Counted from the first letter of the stretch, positions 20,181 to 24,469 are shown. The stretch: DNA of 63,050 bases from a virus (IMGVR_UViG_3300043640_000027:1-63050), one strand, 5' to 3'. Made by a program: numbers and translations. The notes: generated from the sequence alone by a model not told the origin.

Positions 20181-20463
20181 GCATGCTGGTGGCAGGCATG
20201 TCAGCCCCTTGACTCCGGTCGAGGCACAAGGAAACCGTGTGTTAACGGGACCAGTCTGCACGGCGTTTGCCTCCCACCGGGAACAGACCGCTACTCAAGC
20301 GAGAGTGTTTAGACTTCAGACCCATCTAGACATAGAGCGTTAGCGACACGATAAGAGCAGTTAGCCACGCACCATCCACAGGTATATCCTAGTTAGCGCT
20401 AGGACGTAGCAGTATTAACCTATTGGACACCCAAGGTTGTAAAGGGTGCGTGCATAATTTCTG

Positions 20464-20559
20464 ATGTAGGTGGCGAAATGGTAGACGCGGCGCAAGCTGC
20501 CCTTATATAGAGCGGCCGATCTTGAGGGCGTACAGGTTCGATTCCTGTCCTACATCCCA
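20464..20559 (+). tRNA. tRNA-like element with aberrant anticodon region (type-II/Leu-like D arm; possible pseudo-tRNA or processing signal)
   Basis: 7-bp acceptor ATGTAGG/CCTACAT. Leu-like D arm GCGAAATGGTAGACGC. Canonical T arm ACAGG-TTCGATT-CCTGT, discriminator C and encoded CCA. The 43 nt between the D and T arms (20489-20531) does not fold into a 5-bp/7-nt anticodon arm; it forms a long hairpin at 20498-20530 instead. Confidence 0.45.
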
Positions 20560-20572
20560 TTCGGAGATAATC

Positions 20573-20818
20573 ATGTTCGGTATTATGCACCATCTAAAGG
20601 TGACCATCTGCGAGAACGCAATGGACGCCATCGCTAAGGGCTATTCCAAAGAAGCAACCTACAAAGACTATAAGCCTGTCAACATAGAGGAAGTAGTCGT
20701 GGTGCGTGACGGTACAGAAGGCGGAAACTCTACCGCCGATCTTGTTCTTGTAGACCAAGAAGGCAATAAATACGTCGTCATGGTCACAGGTAATTTACTT
20801 AAGGCTTTGCCGGTATAG
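20573..20818 (+). CDS. hypothetical protein
   Basis: Start chosen at ATG 20573 (GGAGA 5 nt upstream, 14 nt after the tRNA-like CCA). The stop TAG lies 10 nt inside tRNA-Thr. Confidence 0.55.
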   Translation: MFGIMHHLKVTICENAMDAIAKGYSKEATYKDYKPVNIEEVVVVRDGTEGGNSTADLVLVDQEGNKYVVMVTGNLLKALPV

Positions 20819-20884
20819 CTCAGTTGGTAGAGCAATTCACTTGTAATGAATAGGTCGTGAGTTCGATTCTTACTATCGGCACCA
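20809..20884 (+). tRNA. tRNA-Thr(UGU): tRNA-Thr (anticodon UGU)
   Basis: Manual cloverleaf: GCCGGTA TA GCTC AGTTGGTA GAGC A ATTCA CTTGTAA TGAAT AGGTC GTGAG TTCGATT CTTAC TATCGGC A CCA (76 nt). Confidence 0.9.
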
Positions 20885-20897
20885 CTAAGGATTAAAT

Positions 20898-21140
20898 ATG
20901 GAACGCTGGGACGATACTGTACCGCCGTTAATGTTGTTTACCCCCGAAGAGTTCGCCCGTGTACCAGATGGTACAAAGTTAGAGGCTATTGACGGAGAGA
21001 TAGTAACCAAAGGCGAAGATCACATAGACGACGATGTTAGATTCGGTTGTCTAGCTTTCGGAAGTAGGGACGAAGAAGTGCAAAAGTTAGCGAGTGTGGC
21101 GGAATTGGTAGACGCGCTAGATTTAGGTTCTAGTAGTTAA
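20898..21140 (+). CDS. hypothetical protein whose last 16-17 codons and stop lie inside tRNA-Leu
   Basis: AAGGA 7 nt before ATG 20898, 14 nt after the tRNA-Thr CCA. The ORF runs 51 nt into tRNA-Leu(UAG). Confidence 0.5.
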   Translation: MERWDDTVPPLMLFTPEEFARVPDGTKLEAIDGEIVTKGEDHIDDDVRFGCLAFGSRDEEVQKLASVAELVDALDLGSSS

Positions 21141-21174
21141 CACTGTGCGGGTTCAATTCCCGCCATTCGCACCA
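21090..21174 (+). tRNA. tRNA-Leu(UAG): tRNA-Leu (anticodon UAG)
   Basis: Manual fold: GCGAGTG TG GCG GAATTGGTAGA CGC G CTAGA TTTAGGT TCTAG, 13-nt variable arm, GCGGG TTCAATT CCCGC CATTCGC A CCA (85 nt). Confidence 0.9.
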
Positions 21175-21191
21175 AATACAGAGGCATCATA

Positions 21192-21491
21192 ATGGAAATC
21201 AAAGTAGCGCCGGAAGATATTAATACCATGCTGGCGGACGCGGTACTCAAATCCGCCATAGGTAAAGAACTACATCAGGTCATTCTGTCTAAGCTTAATG
21301 ATTATACGTTCAAGCGCGCCATCGAGGAGACGGTTATTTCAGTTGTAAGGAATATCGCGATAGACATGGTTCATGAGAACGAAGAAGTCAAAACTAGAAT
21401 CAAGGAAGAAGTGGCTAAGTACATGGAAGGCGGCGCAATGAAAGATATTATCGCTAAGATAGGCGATAAAATAACTGTGGCTAACTACTAA
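21192..21491 (+). CDS. hypothetical protein
   Basis: 99-aa ORF. AGAGG RBS; the start lies 18 nt after the tRNA-Leu CCA and the stop 5 nt before the next tRNA. Confidence 0.6.
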   Translation: MEIKVAPEDINTMLADAVLKSAIGKELHQVILSKLNDYTFKRAIEETVISVVRNIAIDMVHENEEVKTRIKEEVAKYMEGGAMKDIIAKIGDKITVANY

Positions 21492-21496
21492 ACTAT

Positions 21497-21573
21497 AGGC
21501 GGTTAGCTCAGTTGGTCAGAGCAGGCGACTCATAATCGCTTGGTCGTGGGTTCAAGTCCCACACCGCCTACCA
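21497..21573 (+). tRNA. tRNA-Ile2/Met(CAU): tRNA with anticodon CAU (probably lysidine-type tRNA-Ile2; elongator Met not excluded)
   Basis: AGGCGGT TA GCTC AGTTGGTCA GAGC A GGCGA CTCATAA TCGCT TGGTC GTGGG TTCAAGT CCCAC ACCGCCT A CCA (77 nt). The A1-U72 pair and the anticodon arm match my recollection of E. coli ileX. Confidence 0.85.
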
Positions 21574-21600
21574 TAAATGCAACATAACCAAGGCACGGAT

Positions 21601-21885
21601 ATGTCTAAGGCAGTAGCAGTAACTCAGATGGTTCTGCACAACGCGAATATACCGCGAGTGCTTTGCGACCACATGCTAGGCGAACACCATACAACGCGAC
21701 ACCGCATGCTTGTGGGTACAGTAGTTATGCTTTGCGGGGTATTAATCGCAAAGACCACAGGGCATATTCACTCCGAAGTAGTCGAAGTGATGGGCGATCT
21801 GACAGGTTATCTTGTGCATGGCGTAGGAGCCGTACCTTACGTGGATGCGTTAGTTATAGCGGTACGGCGTAGCAGCGGAGATTAG
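21601..21885 (+). CDS. small membrane protein
   Basis: Start chosen at ATG 21601 (AAGG upstream). Two hydrophobic helices (MLVGTVVMLCGVLIA and LVHGVGAVPYVDALVIAV). The track start 21577 lies 4 nt after the tRNA. Confidence 0.5.
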   Translation: MSKAVAVTQMVLHNANIPRVLCDHMLGEHHTTRHRMLVGTVVMLCGVLIAKTTGHIHSEVVEVMGDLTGYLVHGVGAVPYVDALVIAVRRSSGD

Positions 21886-21886
21886 A

Positions 21887-22057
21887 ATGGCTAAGTCCAT
21901 GAAGGGTGCAGGCTTCAAAGCTGTGCAAAGTAATATCGCTAAGAAAGAAGGTATCCCGATGAAGAGCGCGGGCGCTATCTTGGCGAAGTCCAGCCGCAAT
22001 GCCAGCGCCAAAGCGAAGAAAGCTAACCCAGCACTCAAGAAAGTTAAGGGTTACTGA
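21887..22057 (+). CDS. small Lys-rich basic protein (56 aa, below track cutoff)
   Basis: Manual translation MAKSMKGAGFKAVQSNIAKKEGIPMKSAGAILAKSSRNASAKAKKANPALKKVKGY. Fills the gap and its stop overlaps the next ATG (TGATG). Preferred over antisense ORF 21850..22038. Confidence 0.5.
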   Translation: MAKSMKGAGFKAVQSNIAKKEGIPMKSAGAILAKSSRNASAKAKKANPALKKVKGY

Positions 22058-22497
22058 TGGCTAAGGTCAAGTGGTTAGAGAGGGAGCTATTCCGCTCCCC
22101 CGTGTATTATTGTCTCTGCACTACCGAAAAAGAATACACAGAAGAGTTTGTTCGATTAGACGTTAAGTATCCGGGTGAGTGGTTGAAGAATGACCGATCC
22201 GGCGCTTGCACGCATTTCGCCACACATAAGGACTATGGTACAGTCGCTATCGTCTGTATGCCAATAGAGCCTAAGCGTACATTAGTAGAACTTAATGCGA
22301 TGCTTGTGCATGAAGGGACGCATGTTGTCCAAGAGGTAATGGACAACATAGGTGAGAAGCACCCTAGTGGAGAGTTTCAAGCGTACCTAATGCAGAAAGT
22401 ATGTTTGGAACTAATGGGGGAGATGATGCGCAAGCTATACACTAAACCCAAACTGCTAGCTAAGATTATGGCTAACCAAGCGAAGATATATAAATGA
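22057..22497 (+). CDS. hypothetical protein with HExxH motif (possible small zinc metallopeptidase)
   Basis: MLVHEGTHVVQEV contains HEGTH. 146 aa. Confidence 0.5.
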   Translation: MAKVKWLERELFRSPVYYCLCTTEKEYTEEFVRLDVKYPGEWLKNDRSGACTHFATHKDYGTVAIVCMPIEPKRTLVELNAMLVHEGTHVVQEVMDNIGEKHPSGEFQAYLMQKVCLELMGEMMRKLYTKPKLLAKIMANQAKIYK

Positions 22498-23063
22498 GCG
22501 AATTAATTACCACTACAGCGAATAGAGTCAAAGCTGGTGGTTACTGGTGCGAGGATGCCACAGCGATTACGCAGGCAGCCTTAGATAAGACTGGACTAAG
22601 TTGGGACGATGAAATTCCCGTTACTTGGGGGTTCAATAACCTAGGGCTGGCAAATACTATTCTGGCCCTAGGTTCTGTTCGTCCGAAGTTTCAGAAGCGA
22701 GCAGATGTAATTACTATTAAGTTACTGAAAGAACTACATAGCATAGCTTTGAAGCTATGCGAGAAAGTAGGATTTACGGTAACTGATGTGGGGCATTGGC
22801 TGGGTAACCCGGATCGTGTAGGTAGCCGGAAGACGCAGTATAGTATGTGGCAACAGCTAGGACAGTCTGCCAGTATGCCGGTCGATAAAGCCCTGATAGA
22901 AGCCATGGCAGTCCTATTTAGCGAACAGCCAGACCACCTTAAGTGCGTCCATGCAAGTAAGCAGATACTATTTGTAGCGCGAGCCTTGAGCGGTGATGCA
23001 GGAGCCGTACAACTACGGTACGAGATAATCAACTTTCTACACACGGAGCTAGACAATGGATAA
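22494..23063 (+). CDS. hypothetical protein
   Basis: 189-aa ORF, ATGA-coupled. Confidence 0.65.
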   Translation: MSELITTTANRVKAGGYWCEDATAITQAALDKTGLSWDDEIPVTWGFNNLGLANTILALGSVRPKFQKRADVITIKLLKELHSIALKLCEKVGFTVTDVGHWLGNPDRVGSRKTQYSMWQQLGQSASMPVDKALIEAMAVLFSEQPDHLKCVHASKQILFVARALSGDAGAVQLRYEIINFLHTELDNG

Positions 23064-23463
23064 GATCGAAACGCGGTACTGGAAGCGCGCGCGCCATGAC
23101 TTAGACAGGGACACGAGAGAAGTTATTTACTTCGCTACCGATACAAACGCAGCGCATGCCCGCGCAGAGAGCGACCCACACGCACAGGAATGCGGCTTCC
23201 GCGAGTACAGCGACAACGTACCGGAGCAGGTACACAACGGCGCAGATCGCAGCCCAGCCCCCGTGGAACTGGTAGACCCGCTAGTAGGTAAACAGCAGGC
23301 ATGGGAAGCGTTGCAGGCATGGACTCATTCGCACGGTGACAGCGTAGCGATTCAAGACCAGATCGCCATGCTTGAGCTTTGGAAGCACCAGTTATGCATG
23401 TGGGCAACAAGCACCATGGCTGCGCAGCTTAAGCCCGATGGAGCTAAACCTAATGTCAACTGA
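23056..23463 (+). CDS. hypothetical protein
   Basis: 135-aa ORF overlapping its neighbours by 8 and 11 nt. Confidence 0.6.
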   Translation: MDKIETRYWKRARHDLDRDTREVIYFATDTNAAHARAESDPHAQECGFREYSDNVPEQVHNGADRSPAPVELVDPLVGKQQAWEALQAWTHSHGDSVAIQDQIAMLELWKHQLCMWATSTMAAQLKPDGAKPNVN

Positions 23464-23989
23464 TCTAATGATCGACATTGAAACACTCGGCACAGCAAAT
23501 AATGCCCATGTGTTGTCGGTCGGCATGGTGTGGTTCGATATTAGGCATCCCGATGAATCGCTAGTAGAACTTCCGATCTTACACCCCGATATGGCGCAGC
23601 CGCTTAGTATGATCGACGGCGACACGGTAGCGTGGTGGATGAAGCAAGGTACGGAAGCCAAGCAAGTATTTGCGGACACAGTAGAGCGCGAAGCTCTTTC
23701 CGTGGTCGCCGAAAAAGTATATCAGAATGCCAATAACGCCCAACGTATATGGGCAAAAGACCCGGACTTCGATTGCATTATTCTGGCTAACTTCGTTCAG
23801 AACTATCTGAGCAAGAGTATTAAATGGCCGTACTGGAAAGGCCGCAGCGTCCGCACCATGTTGGATGTACTGCCAGCCACCAAGGAAATGCGGTTTGAGG
23901 GCGTCCAACATAATGCTTTGGCCGACGCGGTTCATCAAGCCAAGCAGATGCAGGCGGTGTTTAGTCACCTACAATTGAGGAACTACTAA
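23453..23989 (+). CDS. DEDDh-type 3'-5' exonuclease
   Basis: Start chosen at ATG 23453 (MSTDLMIDIETLG). ExoI motif DIETLG and ExoIII motif HNALADAVH. Confidence 0.7.
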   Translation: MSTDLMIDIETLGTANNAHVLSVGMVWFDIRHPDESLVELPILHPDMAQPLSMIDGDTVAWWMKQGTEAKQVFADTVEREALSVVAEKVYQNANNAQRIWAKDPDFDCIILANFVQNYLSKSIKWPYWKGRSVRTMLDVLPATKEMRFEGVQHNALADAVHQAKQMQAVFSHLQLRNY

Positions 23990-24156
23990 TGACTGTATGC
24001 AGAGAGTGCGACGGCGTAGGTGAGATTATGTGCGACGAGTGTGGTGGTTCGGGTCTAGGCGATAGCGACAAAGGCACTTGTGAAGTATGCGACGGCAACG
24101 GCGTATTGATGTGCCAGGACTGCGGCGGTATGGGCGAATTAGAAGACGAAGATTAA
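23989..24156 (+). CDS. DnaJ-type zinc-finger mini-protein (55 aa, below track cutoff)
   Basis: Manual translation MTVCRECDGVGEIMCDECGGSGLGDSDKGTCEVCDGNGVLMCQDCGGMGELEDED gives four CxxCxGxG repeats. TAATG coupling. Ends 7 nt before tRNA-Leu(UAA). Confidence 0.6.
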   Translation: MTVCRECDGVGEIMCDECGGSGLGDSDKGTCEVCDGNGVLMCQDCGGMGELEDED

Positions 24157-24163
24157 TAGTATT

Positions 24164-24247
24164 GCGCGGGTGGTGGAACGGTATACACATGAGACTTAAA
24201 ATCTCACGGCGAAAGCCTTGCGGGTTCGAGTCCCGCTCCGCGCACCA
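24164..24247 (+). tRNA. tRNA-Leu(UAA): tRNA-Leu (anticodon UAA)
   Basis: GCGCGGG TG GTG GAACGGTATA CAC A TGAGA CTTAAAA TCTCA, 13-nt variable arm, GCGGG TTCGAGT CCCGC TCCGCGC A CCA (84 nt). Confidence 0.9.
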
Positions 24248-24259
24248 TAGGAGAGCAGC

Positions 24260-24469
24260 ATGGATCGTGTATACTTCGATAGTCCTATATCTCCCGCAGG
24301 TCAGGACTGGATGCACTGCGAAGTGCGTAGTACCGTAAATAATGTTTTGCGGGTGACAGTACAGAGCGGCGGATACGGTCATGGGACCATCATGGGACCA
24401 CCATGGAGTTTCCGATGGCTAGGGTGCACCGAATTGAATACGGCGATAGCAGGCGGTAGTTATGGATAA
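24260..24469 (+). CDS. hypothetical protein
   Basis: AGGAGA RBS immediately after the tRNA CCA. 69 aa. Confidence 0.55.
   Translation: MDRVYFDSPISPAGQDWMHCEVRSTVNNVLRVTVQSGGYGHGTIMGPPWSFRWLGCTELNTAIAGGSYG

Follow-up and report, generated by a model that had tools for sequence, protein, structure and literature searches.

The DNA analysed here (the window) is a stretch of 63,050 nt from an uncultured phage (IMGVR_UViG_3300043640_000027), whose nearest cultured phages show only ~31–33% DNA-polymerase identity. At 20464–24469, four canonical tRNAs and one tRNA-like element alternate with small ORFs on the same strand, and all features described below lie on the + strand. The canonical tRNAs were called by ARAGORN and score between 56 and 74 bits in Rfam. 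Additional structured RNAs in this region are the tRNA-like element and a covarying leader.

The leader (20184..20460) is conserved, structured, and non-coding, and is located directly upstream of the tRNA region. It can be aligned across 6 relatives, for which RNAalifold gives 64 pairs, 14 of them with compensatory changes. No Rfam match was found for it at E ≤ 1. Its 3′ neighbour is the tRNA-like element in the window, tRNA-Thr in G001, and the Shine–Dalgarno (SD) sequence of ORF81 in L002, L013, and L014. In its fold, the tRNA-like element (20464..20559) has an acceptor stem of 7 bp, a D arm, a T arm, a discriminator, and CCA, and the normal anticodon arm is missing. ARAGORN reports it as a 96-nt “tRNA-Ala.” We rejected it as a true tRNA and classed it as tRNA-like because its Rfam score is only 23 bits (tRNA-Sec). 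The element is missing from this slot in all relatives, and an exact copy of its 3′ part was not found in IMG/VR.

tRNA-Thr(UGU) (20809..20884; 73.5 bits) shows compensatory stem changes among relatives, while its first 26 nt are invariant. Seven relatives cover the slot of tRNA-Leu(UAG) (21090..21174; 58.8 bits); six of them have this tRNA (G001, L013, L014, L019, L024, and L025), and L002 lacks it. The tRNA with a CAU anticodon (21497..21573; 71.7 bits; Met according to ARAGORN) is 95–100% identical among relatives, with compensatory changes in the T stem. Its anticodon arm resembles that of E. coli Ile2, and the tRNA is probably Ile2 rather than Met. tRNA-Leu(UAA) (24164..24247; 56.4 bits) is conserved and also shows compensatory changes.

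ORF81 (20573..20818) encodes a small protein with 19 homologues of 74–88 aa and dN/dS values of 0.11–0.27. Its AF2 model (pLDDT 73.6) gave no fold match in the PDB. The first 64 codons of ORF80 (20898..21140) make up a conserved small protein; the match to PHROG 34791 ends near residue 56, and pN is 0.18 compared with a pS of 0.83–0.90. The small protein ORF99 (21192..21491) shares 84% identity with its L013 homologue (dN/dS 0.07). ORF94 (21601..21885), a small hydrophobic protein, shows dN/dS values of 0.19–0.51, and ORF69 (24260..24469) has a homologue in L013 with dN/dS of 0.31. An Rv2179c-like 3′–5′ exoribonuclease-type (DEDD) protein (23453..23989; PF16473, E = 5e-33) is also encoded inside the tRNA region, at a position conserved in relatives. 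One may speculate that it acts in tRNA 3′ trimming. A 55-aa zinc-finger mini-protein (23989..24156; PF25436, E = 3.6e-7) follows. In the tRNA-adjacent ORFs, neither Pfam nor PHROGs revealed a nuclease domain, and homing endonucleases (GIY-YIG/HNH) are thus absent there. As the small ORFs have homologues, low dN/dS (~0.07–0.51, mostly ≤ 0.3), and synonymous sites near saturation, sequence comparison argues that they are real genes under purifying selection.

Every tRNA or tRNA-like 3′ end is followed by an SD and a start codon. As extracted by script, the spacers from CCA to ATG are, in 5′ to 3′ order, 13, 13, 17, 27, and 12 nt (ORF81, ORF80, ORF99, ORF94, and ORF69), and the purine-rich SDs in the same order are GGAGA, AAGGA, AGAGG, AAGG, and AGGAGA. 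For the fourth gene, ATG 21577 was rejected as the start, and ATG 21601 was chosen because the CCAAGGCACGGAYATG motif is conserved in relatives. This start motif is kept in L002, L013, and G001; a tRNA in front of it is not always present there. In the window, L002, G001, L013, L014, L019, and L024–26, the distance from CCA to the start is 11–27 nt unless a further structured element lies between, and past tRNA-Leu(UAA), it is 11–15 nt in all relatives. Identical translation-start sequences drive different ORFs in different genomes; one shared sequence is 15 nt long and occurs a single time in the window. The SD and ATG are each gene's own translation start, which moves with the gene with or without an upstream tRNA.

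On the other side, the stops in the window lie at +10, +51, −5, and −7 relative to the tRNA start. The last 2 codons and the TAG of ORF81 are tRNA-Thr positions 2–10, with the TAG at positions 8–10. This 10-nt overlap is found in 8 of 8 related contigs carrying both genes, at an ORF81 pS of 0.52–0.75. In ORF80, tRNA-Leu(UAG) sequence supplies the final 16 codons and the TAA. This 51-nt read-in occurs only in the window; the relatives of ORF80 stop on their own codon at 66–69 aa, and homology to them ends precisely where tRNA-Leu begins. Between the stop of ORF99 and the CAU tRNA there are 5 nt, and 7 nt separate the mini-protein's stop from tRNA-Leu(UAA), a spacing that is −6/−7 in all five genomes with the latter tRNA. 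In the genomes used for the CCA-to-start distances, ORFs upstream of tRNAs end between 14 nt before and 51 nt inside the tRNA. An earlier note on this DNA had claimed an SD and a start codon after each CCA, a stop of ORF 20573..20818 placed 10 nt inside tRNA-Thr, ORF 20898..21140 reading 51 nt into tRNA-Leu(UAG), and stops of the remaining ORFs 5–7 nt before a tRNA. All of this was borne out at every coordinate, with CCA-to-ATG spacers of 12–27 nt. The conservation on which its reading depends was found for the small ORFs; among the overlaps, it holds for the 10-nt overlap and fails for the 51-nt read-in.

A crude gene call gives a coding fraction of ~94% across the window, and the median spacing at the 78 tRNA-free same-strand junctions is 0 nt (quartiles −4 to 47). 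Hence, the tightness at the tRNA edges is not above what the genome's own packing yields. The layout is real and conserved, yet ordinary for compact phage tRNA regions, as the coliphages T5 and T4 have the same arrangement.

We consider it probable that the locus is a hyperplastic early region of a compact phage, in which spacers are at their functional minimum and overlaps are tolerated, with no dedicated device. The tRNAs, the tRNA-like element, and other structured RNAs are interleaved on one strand with real single small genes. At the 3′ side of a tRNA, only the SD and spacing of the next gene are left, and at the 5′ side, the upstream gene ends ≤ 7 nt away or uses a stop inside the tRNA. 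Most reading frames of tRNAs contain stops, and therefore a gene losing its own stop would end within ~50 nt. The overlaps are probably side effects of deletions and of modules being exchanged where tRNAs begin and end.

Judging from this anatomy and from what is known of T4 and T5, the whole region is most likely one polycistronic RNA that would be cleaved at the tRNA edges. The spacers between tRNAs and ORFs are too short to hold promoters. Sigma-70-type promoter and terminator signals were not above shuffled controls, although sigma-70 may not be the promoter type of this phage. Host RNase P would free the tRNA 5′ ends, and endo- plus exonucleases the 3′ ends, as in T4 and T5 clusters. These enzymes are assumed from Gram-negative models. 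In bacteria, CCA-encoding tRNAs mature at the 3′ end by a pathway other than RNase Z processing. Should RNase P cleave at the tRNA 5′ ends, ORF 20573 and ORF 20898 would be left with messages that lack stops, and for these two the logic of the earlier note, that tRNA excision strips upstream stop codons, holds. Part of the molecules would be translated before cutting, and others would become non-stop or SD-proximal fragments, which may go to host rescue and decay. No tmRNA, SmpB, or RF-1/ArfB domain is encoded by the phage.

Compact packing has to be weighed against other readings. That the small ORFs are not genes and the overlaps just reflect how ORFs were listed would fit the absence of a significant Pfam match for five of them. 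However, their homologues are of conserved length and under strong purifying selection, an SD precedes each ORF, and ORF80 matches a PHROG family, so this reading is hardly credible. Tentatively, the tRNA genes may serve as conserved recombination linkers. Co-infecting relatives would exchange single-gene cassettes by recombination within near-identical tRNAs, and the ORFs would therefore lie flush with the tRNA edges. The tRNA order is fixed among ~9 genomes, while the intervening ORFs are swapped, which gives at least 7 module orders. The most conserved blocks are the tRNAs (76–100% identity); between the window and G001, tRNA blocks are 96–99% identical compared with 67–82% for the flanks, and homology breaks coincide with tRNA ends. 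The 15-nt translation-start sequence shared before different ORFs points in the same direction, as does the precedent of PeSL cassettes in T4-type phages (PMC2839356). Nevertheless, such exchange would explain the swapping but not the initial flushness, for which deletion under packing pressure is still required, and the comparison comprises only ~9 genomes. Recombination at tRNAs complements compact packing and does not replace it.

It is unlikely, in our view, that selection has made the overlaps a regulatory device coupling tRNA supply to protein dose. In one direction, ribosomes finishing ORF81 or ORF80 would unfold the tRNA 5′ half and slow maturation; in the other, the RNase P cut would strip the stop, so that tmRNA would tag the protein and its dose would stay low. 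Such selection is suggested by the ORF81/tRNA-Thr overlap, which persists in all eight contigs despite near-saturated synonymous divergence, and is compatible with the length of ORF81, which is the same with and without the overlap. Furthermore, a DUF1353 gene of G001 and another gene of L019 end 10 nt into the CAU tRNA, and the same idea has been put forward for T4 segB and T5 endonucleases (PMC2330249). On the other hand, tRNA-Thr is retained in G001 without ORF81, distant ORF81 homologues use their own stop with no tRNA at that place, and the 51-nt overlap is a one-off. Conservation of the 10-nt overlap may also be a frozen accident because undoing it is hard without harming the tRNA. In addition, genes for rescue or tagging are absent from the phage, and the ORFs are not nucleases needing tight repression. 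Quite improbable is the combination in which the tRNAs and structured RNAs are the fixed joints of cassette exchange and the 10-nt overlap of ORF81 with tRNA-Thr has been selected as a switch. If this were true, RNase P processing and translation termination would be mutually exclusive on one molecule, and the dose of ORF81, via non-stop rescue, would be set against tRNA-Thr supply. In the more distant phages L016 and L021, ORF81 relatives adjoin tRNA-Thr(UGU) in a different arrangement, which would fit a functional tie of both.

Phage genes ending inside a tRNA can be real and under purifying selection, and such genes would be shortened or lost under annotation rules that bar CDS/tRNA overlaps. 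The ~9 genomes form a natural series with the same tRNAs and different neighbours, which is suited to studying the origin of overlaps and tRNA edges as module borders. This series holds one clade-fixed overlap and one apparently new overlap. If processing and translation truly compete, the locus would offer a simple model for the bacterial handling of tRNA–mRNA co-transcripts and non-stop products.

The earlier note had likened the layout to mitochondrial tRNA punctuation, a model reportedly due to Ojala, Montoya and Attardi in 1981. The likeness is that genes abut tRNAs in a polycistronic unit, so that excision would set mRNA ends and affect stops. However, punctuation of this type is not genome-wide here, as only 5 of ~100 gene junctions carry a tRNA. 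In mitochondria, most or all genes for mRNAs and rRNAs are bordered by tRNAs, whereas the window has five elements compared with 78 tRNA-free same-strand junctions. Mitochondrial mRNAs are leaderless or nearly so, whereas the downstream genes in the window have SD leaders of 12–27 nt. Mitochondrial stops are T or TA stubs completed by polyadenylation; in the window, they are complete TAG or TAA codons that excision would remove.

PeSL (promoter-early stem-loop) cassettes of the T4-type phages RB49 and phi1 are promoter-plus-terminator units, many per genome (Arbiol et al. 2010, PMC2839356). There, too, short conserved elements border gene gain, loss, or replacement among close relatives in hyperplastic regions with small non-essential genes. 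A PeSL, however, consists of a sigma-70 promoter and a terminator stem-loop and is repeated, whereas the elements in the window are tRNAs or structured RNAs that occur once each.

Homing endonuclease genes are common, but not obligatory, in T4- and T5-type tRNA regions. In T5 (NC_005859, ~28.0–40.9 kb), one strand likewise carries tRNAs alternating with small ORFs, and stable RNAs of non-tRNA and tRNA-like type are present. Its annotation contains ORF/tRNA overlaps of 6, 14, 23, and 24 nt (pairs T5.057/tRNA-Met, hegD/tRNA-Gln2, hegC/tRNA-Ser2, and T5.069/tRNA-Asn); ten ORFs start 16–25 nt past tRNA 3′ ends, and non-overlapping stops lie 0–20 nt before the next tRNA. T5 differs in having 24 tRNAs, several HNH homing endonucleases, and mapped promoters between some units, whereas the window has 4 tRNAs and one mimic, interleaved ORFs without a nuclease domain, and one much longer overlap, of 51 nt.

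For T4 segB/tRNA-Arg, a 2008 proposal was that the stop is severed from the last codon during tRNA maturation, which would lower expression, with a parallel suggestion for the T5 endonucleases (Brok-Volchanskaya et al., PMC2330249). Competition between processing and translation is therefore not a new idea, and the statement of the earlier note that such a layout had not been analysed in phages was wrong, given this proposal and the T5 annotation. T4 resembles the window in having an ORF within a tRNA cluster, which in T4 is co-transcribed, and in further RNAs in the same unit, which in T4 are the stable species 1 and 2. In T4, however, the ORF encodes a GIY-YIG homing endonuclease and ends 5 nt before tRNA-Arg by annotation, and the tRNAs are mostly contiguous, whereas in the window, single small genes alternate with tRNAs and stops lie within mature tRNA sequence.

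ARAGORN placed five tRNA or tRNA-like elements on the plus strand, at the exact coordinates proposed in the earlier note. The Rfam scores were 73.5 bits for tRNA-Thr(UGU) (20809-20884, +), 71.7 bits for the CAU tRNA (21497-21573, +), 58.8 bits for tRNA-Leu(UAG) (21090-21174, +) and 56.4 bits for tRNA-Leu(UAA) (24164-24247, +). The remaining element (20464-20559, +; 96 nt) matched tRNA-Sec only, with 23 bits. The tRNA stems carry compensatory changes among relatives. Hence, these tRNAs are functional by comparative criteria. The anticodon stem of tRNA-Thr is perfect in the window and in the related contigs G001, L013, and L014, with compensatory differences, and has two mismatches (hand count) in L002 (9817-9892), L019 (443-518), and L024.

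The sequence and a junction script agreed that every CCA is followed by a purine-rich SD and a start codon. The ATG spacers are 13, 13, 17, 27, and 12 nt and lead to ORF81 (20573-20818), ORF80 (20898-21140), ORF99 (21192-21491), ORF94 (21601-21885), and ORF69 (24260-24469), respectively. On the upstream side, the stop codon of ORF81 lies inside tRNA-Thr, where TAG forms tRNA positions 8-10. ORF80 reads 51 nt into tRNA-Leu(UAG), and its last 16 residues are translated tRNA. The remaining stops fall 5-7 nt before a tRNA: ORF99 ends 5 nt from the CAU tRNA, and a 55-aa zinc-finger ORF (23989-24156) ends 7 nt from tRNA-Leu(UAA).

The record is a complete IMG/VR virus genome of 63,050 bp with direct terminal repeats. 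No close cultured relative was found, as a megablast search against 50,697 phage records matched tRNA sequences only. The DNA polymerase is nearest, at 31-33% identity, to those of Rhizobium RHph_TM3-type and Pseudomonas KPP25/phiR18-type phages. The phages with the most similar polymerases infect Pseudomonadota hosts. Related contigs were gathered mostly by protein look-ups, plus one DNA motif scan. They comprise L002 (63.8 kb), G001 (IMG/VR, 62.9 kb), L013 (61 kb), L014, L019, L020, and L024-L026, and the more distant L015-L018 and L021. The motif scan, which used the non-coding leader upstream of the tRNA region, returned one IMG/VR relative and no match among metagenome contigs. Searching IMG/VR for loci with a single protein, either ORF189 or ORF99, gave no matches.

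The small ORFs between the tRNAs are real and conserved genes. For ORF81, 19 homologues (74-88 aa) share the conserved C-terminus LLK(S/A)(L/I)P(V/C/F)-stop. ORF80 matches PHROG 34791, and its homologues have 66 and 69 aa at 71-72% identity, with another of 66 aa in L024/L025. Codon-level comparison with the relatives gave dN/dS values of 0.11-0.27 for ORF81, 0.07 for ORF99, 0.19-0.51 for ORF94, and 0.31 for ORF69, and a pN of 0.18 versus a pS of 0.83-0.90 for ORF80; synonymous sites are near saturation in these comparisons. The stable lengths of the homologues and these purifying values rule out that the ORFs are spurious. None of the five has a significant Pfam domain. ORF81 has no significant PHROG match, and its AlphaFold (AF2) model (pLDDT 73.6) matched no PDB fold at E<=0.001.

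The overlaps with tRNAs are only partly shared with the relatives. The 10-nt overlap of ORF81 with tRNA-Thr is present in all eight contigs that have both (the window, L002, L013, L014, L019, and L024-L026). The 51-nt read-in of ORF80 occurs in the window alone. Its relatives terminate on stop codons of their own after 66-69 aa; the CAU tRNA begins 5-14 nt later or, in the contig L003, no tRNA is near. The homology of the window ORF80 to them breaks off at precisely the first tRNA-Leu(UAG) base. This overlap is a local accident. The natural 3' end of the family, GTCGAG in L002, resembles the tRNA 5' end GCGAG, and this short similarity would fit an origin by microhomology-mediated deletion. 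Two unrelated genes stop 10 nt inside the CAU tRNA, one in G001 (a DUF1353 gene) and the other in L019 (a 71-aa ORF), and a primase-like gene in L015 ends flush with a tRNA. In the five genomes having tRNA-Leu(UAA), the zinc-finger ORF always stops 6-7 nt before it, and a start codon always follows 11-15 nt after it.

The tRNAs themselves offer early stops. Counted from the first base of the tRNA, the first in-frame stop of the three frames ends at position 10, 38, or 45 in tRNA-Thr, at 1, 44, or 51 in tRNA-Leu(UAG), and at 2, 10, or 39 in the CAU tRNA. A gene losing its own stop is thus terminated quickly in 11 of the 12 frame/tRNA combinations in the window. Only in one of the tRNA-Leu(UAA) frames does the first stop come late, ending 175 nt from the first base of that tRNA. 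For ORF81, we also considered that the P-(V/C)-stop end descended from the tRNA-Thr 5' end even where there is no overlap. This was not adopted because codon constraints explain the similarity equally well. Members of the family share the same length and P-(V/C/F)-stop end with or without tRNA overlap. In the more distant L016 (108-511) and L021 (650-986), a different tRNA-Thr(UGU) immediately precedes the ORF81 homologue, with 84 and 17 nt between them and no overlap. Hence, the gene family and tRNA-Thr are neighbours in two arrangements.

Upstream of the tRNA region, the ORF-free gap at 20184-20460 is a candidate conserved structured RNA. This leader is alignable in six relatives and parts of it are nearly unchanged, whereas the neighbouring genes are saturated at synonymous sites. 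RNAalifold predicted 64 pairs, 14 of them with compensatory changes, and a search against Rfam gave no match at E<=1. Depending on the genome, the leader is followed directly by the ORF81 SD, a tRNA mimic, a hairpin element, or tRNA-Thr. In G001, tRNA-Thr begins right behind the leader, so that RNase P could generate the leader's 3' end. The tRNA mimic is the element at 20464-20559, which folds into an acceptor stem, D arm, T arm, discriminator, and CCA and has no normal anticodon arm. It is an insertion seen in the window alone, where it sits at the precise junction of the conserved leader with the ORF81 SD, and its 3' part has no exact copy in IMG/VR. The hairpin element (~80 nt, irregular, seven compensatory pairs) is absent from the window. 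It lies after tRNA-Thr in L002 (9893-9990) and after the leader in L019 (96-190), L020 (1964-2058), and L024 (~828-915), in each case just before an SD, a slot held by tRNAs elsewhere.

All genomes keep the order Thr, Leu(UAG), CAU for those of these tRNAs that they carry, but the intervening content is different in almost every one. The interval from Thr to Leu(UAG) holds ORF80 or nothing; after Leu(UAG), there is ORF99, DUF1353, the 71-aa ORF, an ORF80 relative, or nothing. In L002, which lacks Leu(UAG), the hairpin element and an ORF80 relative separate Thr from the CAU tRNA. The window and G001 are 96-99% identical in the CAU and Thr tRNA blocks, 83% in tRNA-Leu(UAG), and 67-82% in the flanks. 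Start regions are shared across different genes. An identical 15-nt sequence, TAAGGATTAAWTATG (window 20886-20900; L024 1072-1086), stands before ORF80 in the window and before ORF81 in L024-L026, which suggests that start regions themselves are exchanged. Downstream of tRNA-Leu(UAG), the SD stretch TACAGAGG is used by ORF99 in two genomes, the window and L013, and by an ORF80 relative in L024. CCAAGGCACGGAYATG leads into ORF94 directly behind the tRNA in both the window and L013; in G001, it follows another ORF.

This last case illustrates that the SD and ATG after each CCA are a property of the downstream gene. The window is ~94% coding by a crude gene call, and the 78 same-strand junctions free of tRNAs have a median spacing of 0 nt (quartiles -4 and 47). 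Spacers of 12-17 nt after CCA are about the minimum able to hold an SD and its gap. Taken together, the layout is what general compaction predicts. The earlier note had read it as a mitochondria-like punctuation, in which tRNA excision sets mRNA ends and strips upstream stop codons, and this is reasonable as a consequence of the anatomy. Because spacers of 12-27 nt and overlaps leave promoters no room, and no signal rose above shuffles, we infer from the anatomy that the tRNA region is co-transcribed. The underlying scan was for sigma-70-type promoters and terminators and gave no signal above shuffled controls; the phage's own promoter type may differ.

In bacterial tRNA maturation, RNase P cuts at tRNA 5' ends, and the 3' end of CCA-encoding precursors is formed by endonucleolytic cleavage farther downstream and trimming by exonucleases. 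A cut at 20808/20809 would remove the last three codons and the stop from the ORF81 message. A cut at 21089/21090 would leave an ORF80 message ending after codon 64, so that 2-5 residues of the family's natural length would be missing. A given molecule would be either translated first or cut first, and cut molecules would be left to host tmRNA or Arf rescue. Rescue encoded by the phage was rejected, as the window has no tmRNA, SmpB, or RF-1/ArfB domain. On the downstream side, we conjecture that mRNAs with minimal leaders may arise, depending on the position of the 3' cut with respect to the SD. A gene for an Rv2179c-like (RNase T-type DEDD) 3'-5' exoribonuclease lies within the tRNA region (23453-23989) and at the same place in relatives; it is conceivable that this protein trims tRNA 3' trailers.

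The suggestion that such an arrangement had not been analysed in phages does not hold. A full-text literature search for "tRNA punctuation" and "phage" returned organelle papers only, and the phage transcriptome papers that were consulted contain no analysis of ORF/tRNA overlaps. In T4, however, the tRNA cluster and segB form one ~1.75-kb primary transcript (Brok-Volchanskaya et al., PMC2330249). It was proposed that tRNA-Arg maturation severs the segB stop codon from the last codon, lowering segB expression, and the same cleavage idea was raised for T5 endonucleases (PMC2330249). The label is therefore new for phages, and the phenomenon is not. Of local interest are the clade-fixed overlap, the fresh 51-nt read-in, and the clear cassette exchange at tRNA edges. 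This exchange resembles the modular shuffling described for the promoter-early stem-loop (PeSL) cassettes of T4-type phages (PMC2839356), but the conserved joints here are tRNAs. A PeSL-type linker repeated across the genome was rejected, as TAAGGATTAAWTATG occurs only once in the window. In the T5 record, four annotated CDSs end inside tRNAs, as ORF81 and ORF80 do: T5.057 in tRNA-Met (6 nt), hegC in tRNA-Ser2 (14 nt), hegD in tRNA-Gln2 (23 nt), and T5.069 in tRNA-Asn (24 nt). T5.065 ends flush with tRNA-Lys, ten CDSs begin 16-25 nt past the 3' end of a tRNA, and the T5 region also holds stable and tRNA-like RNAs. The region studied here is a T4/T5-type tRNA region with interspersed ORFs, and its layout is not specific to this phage.
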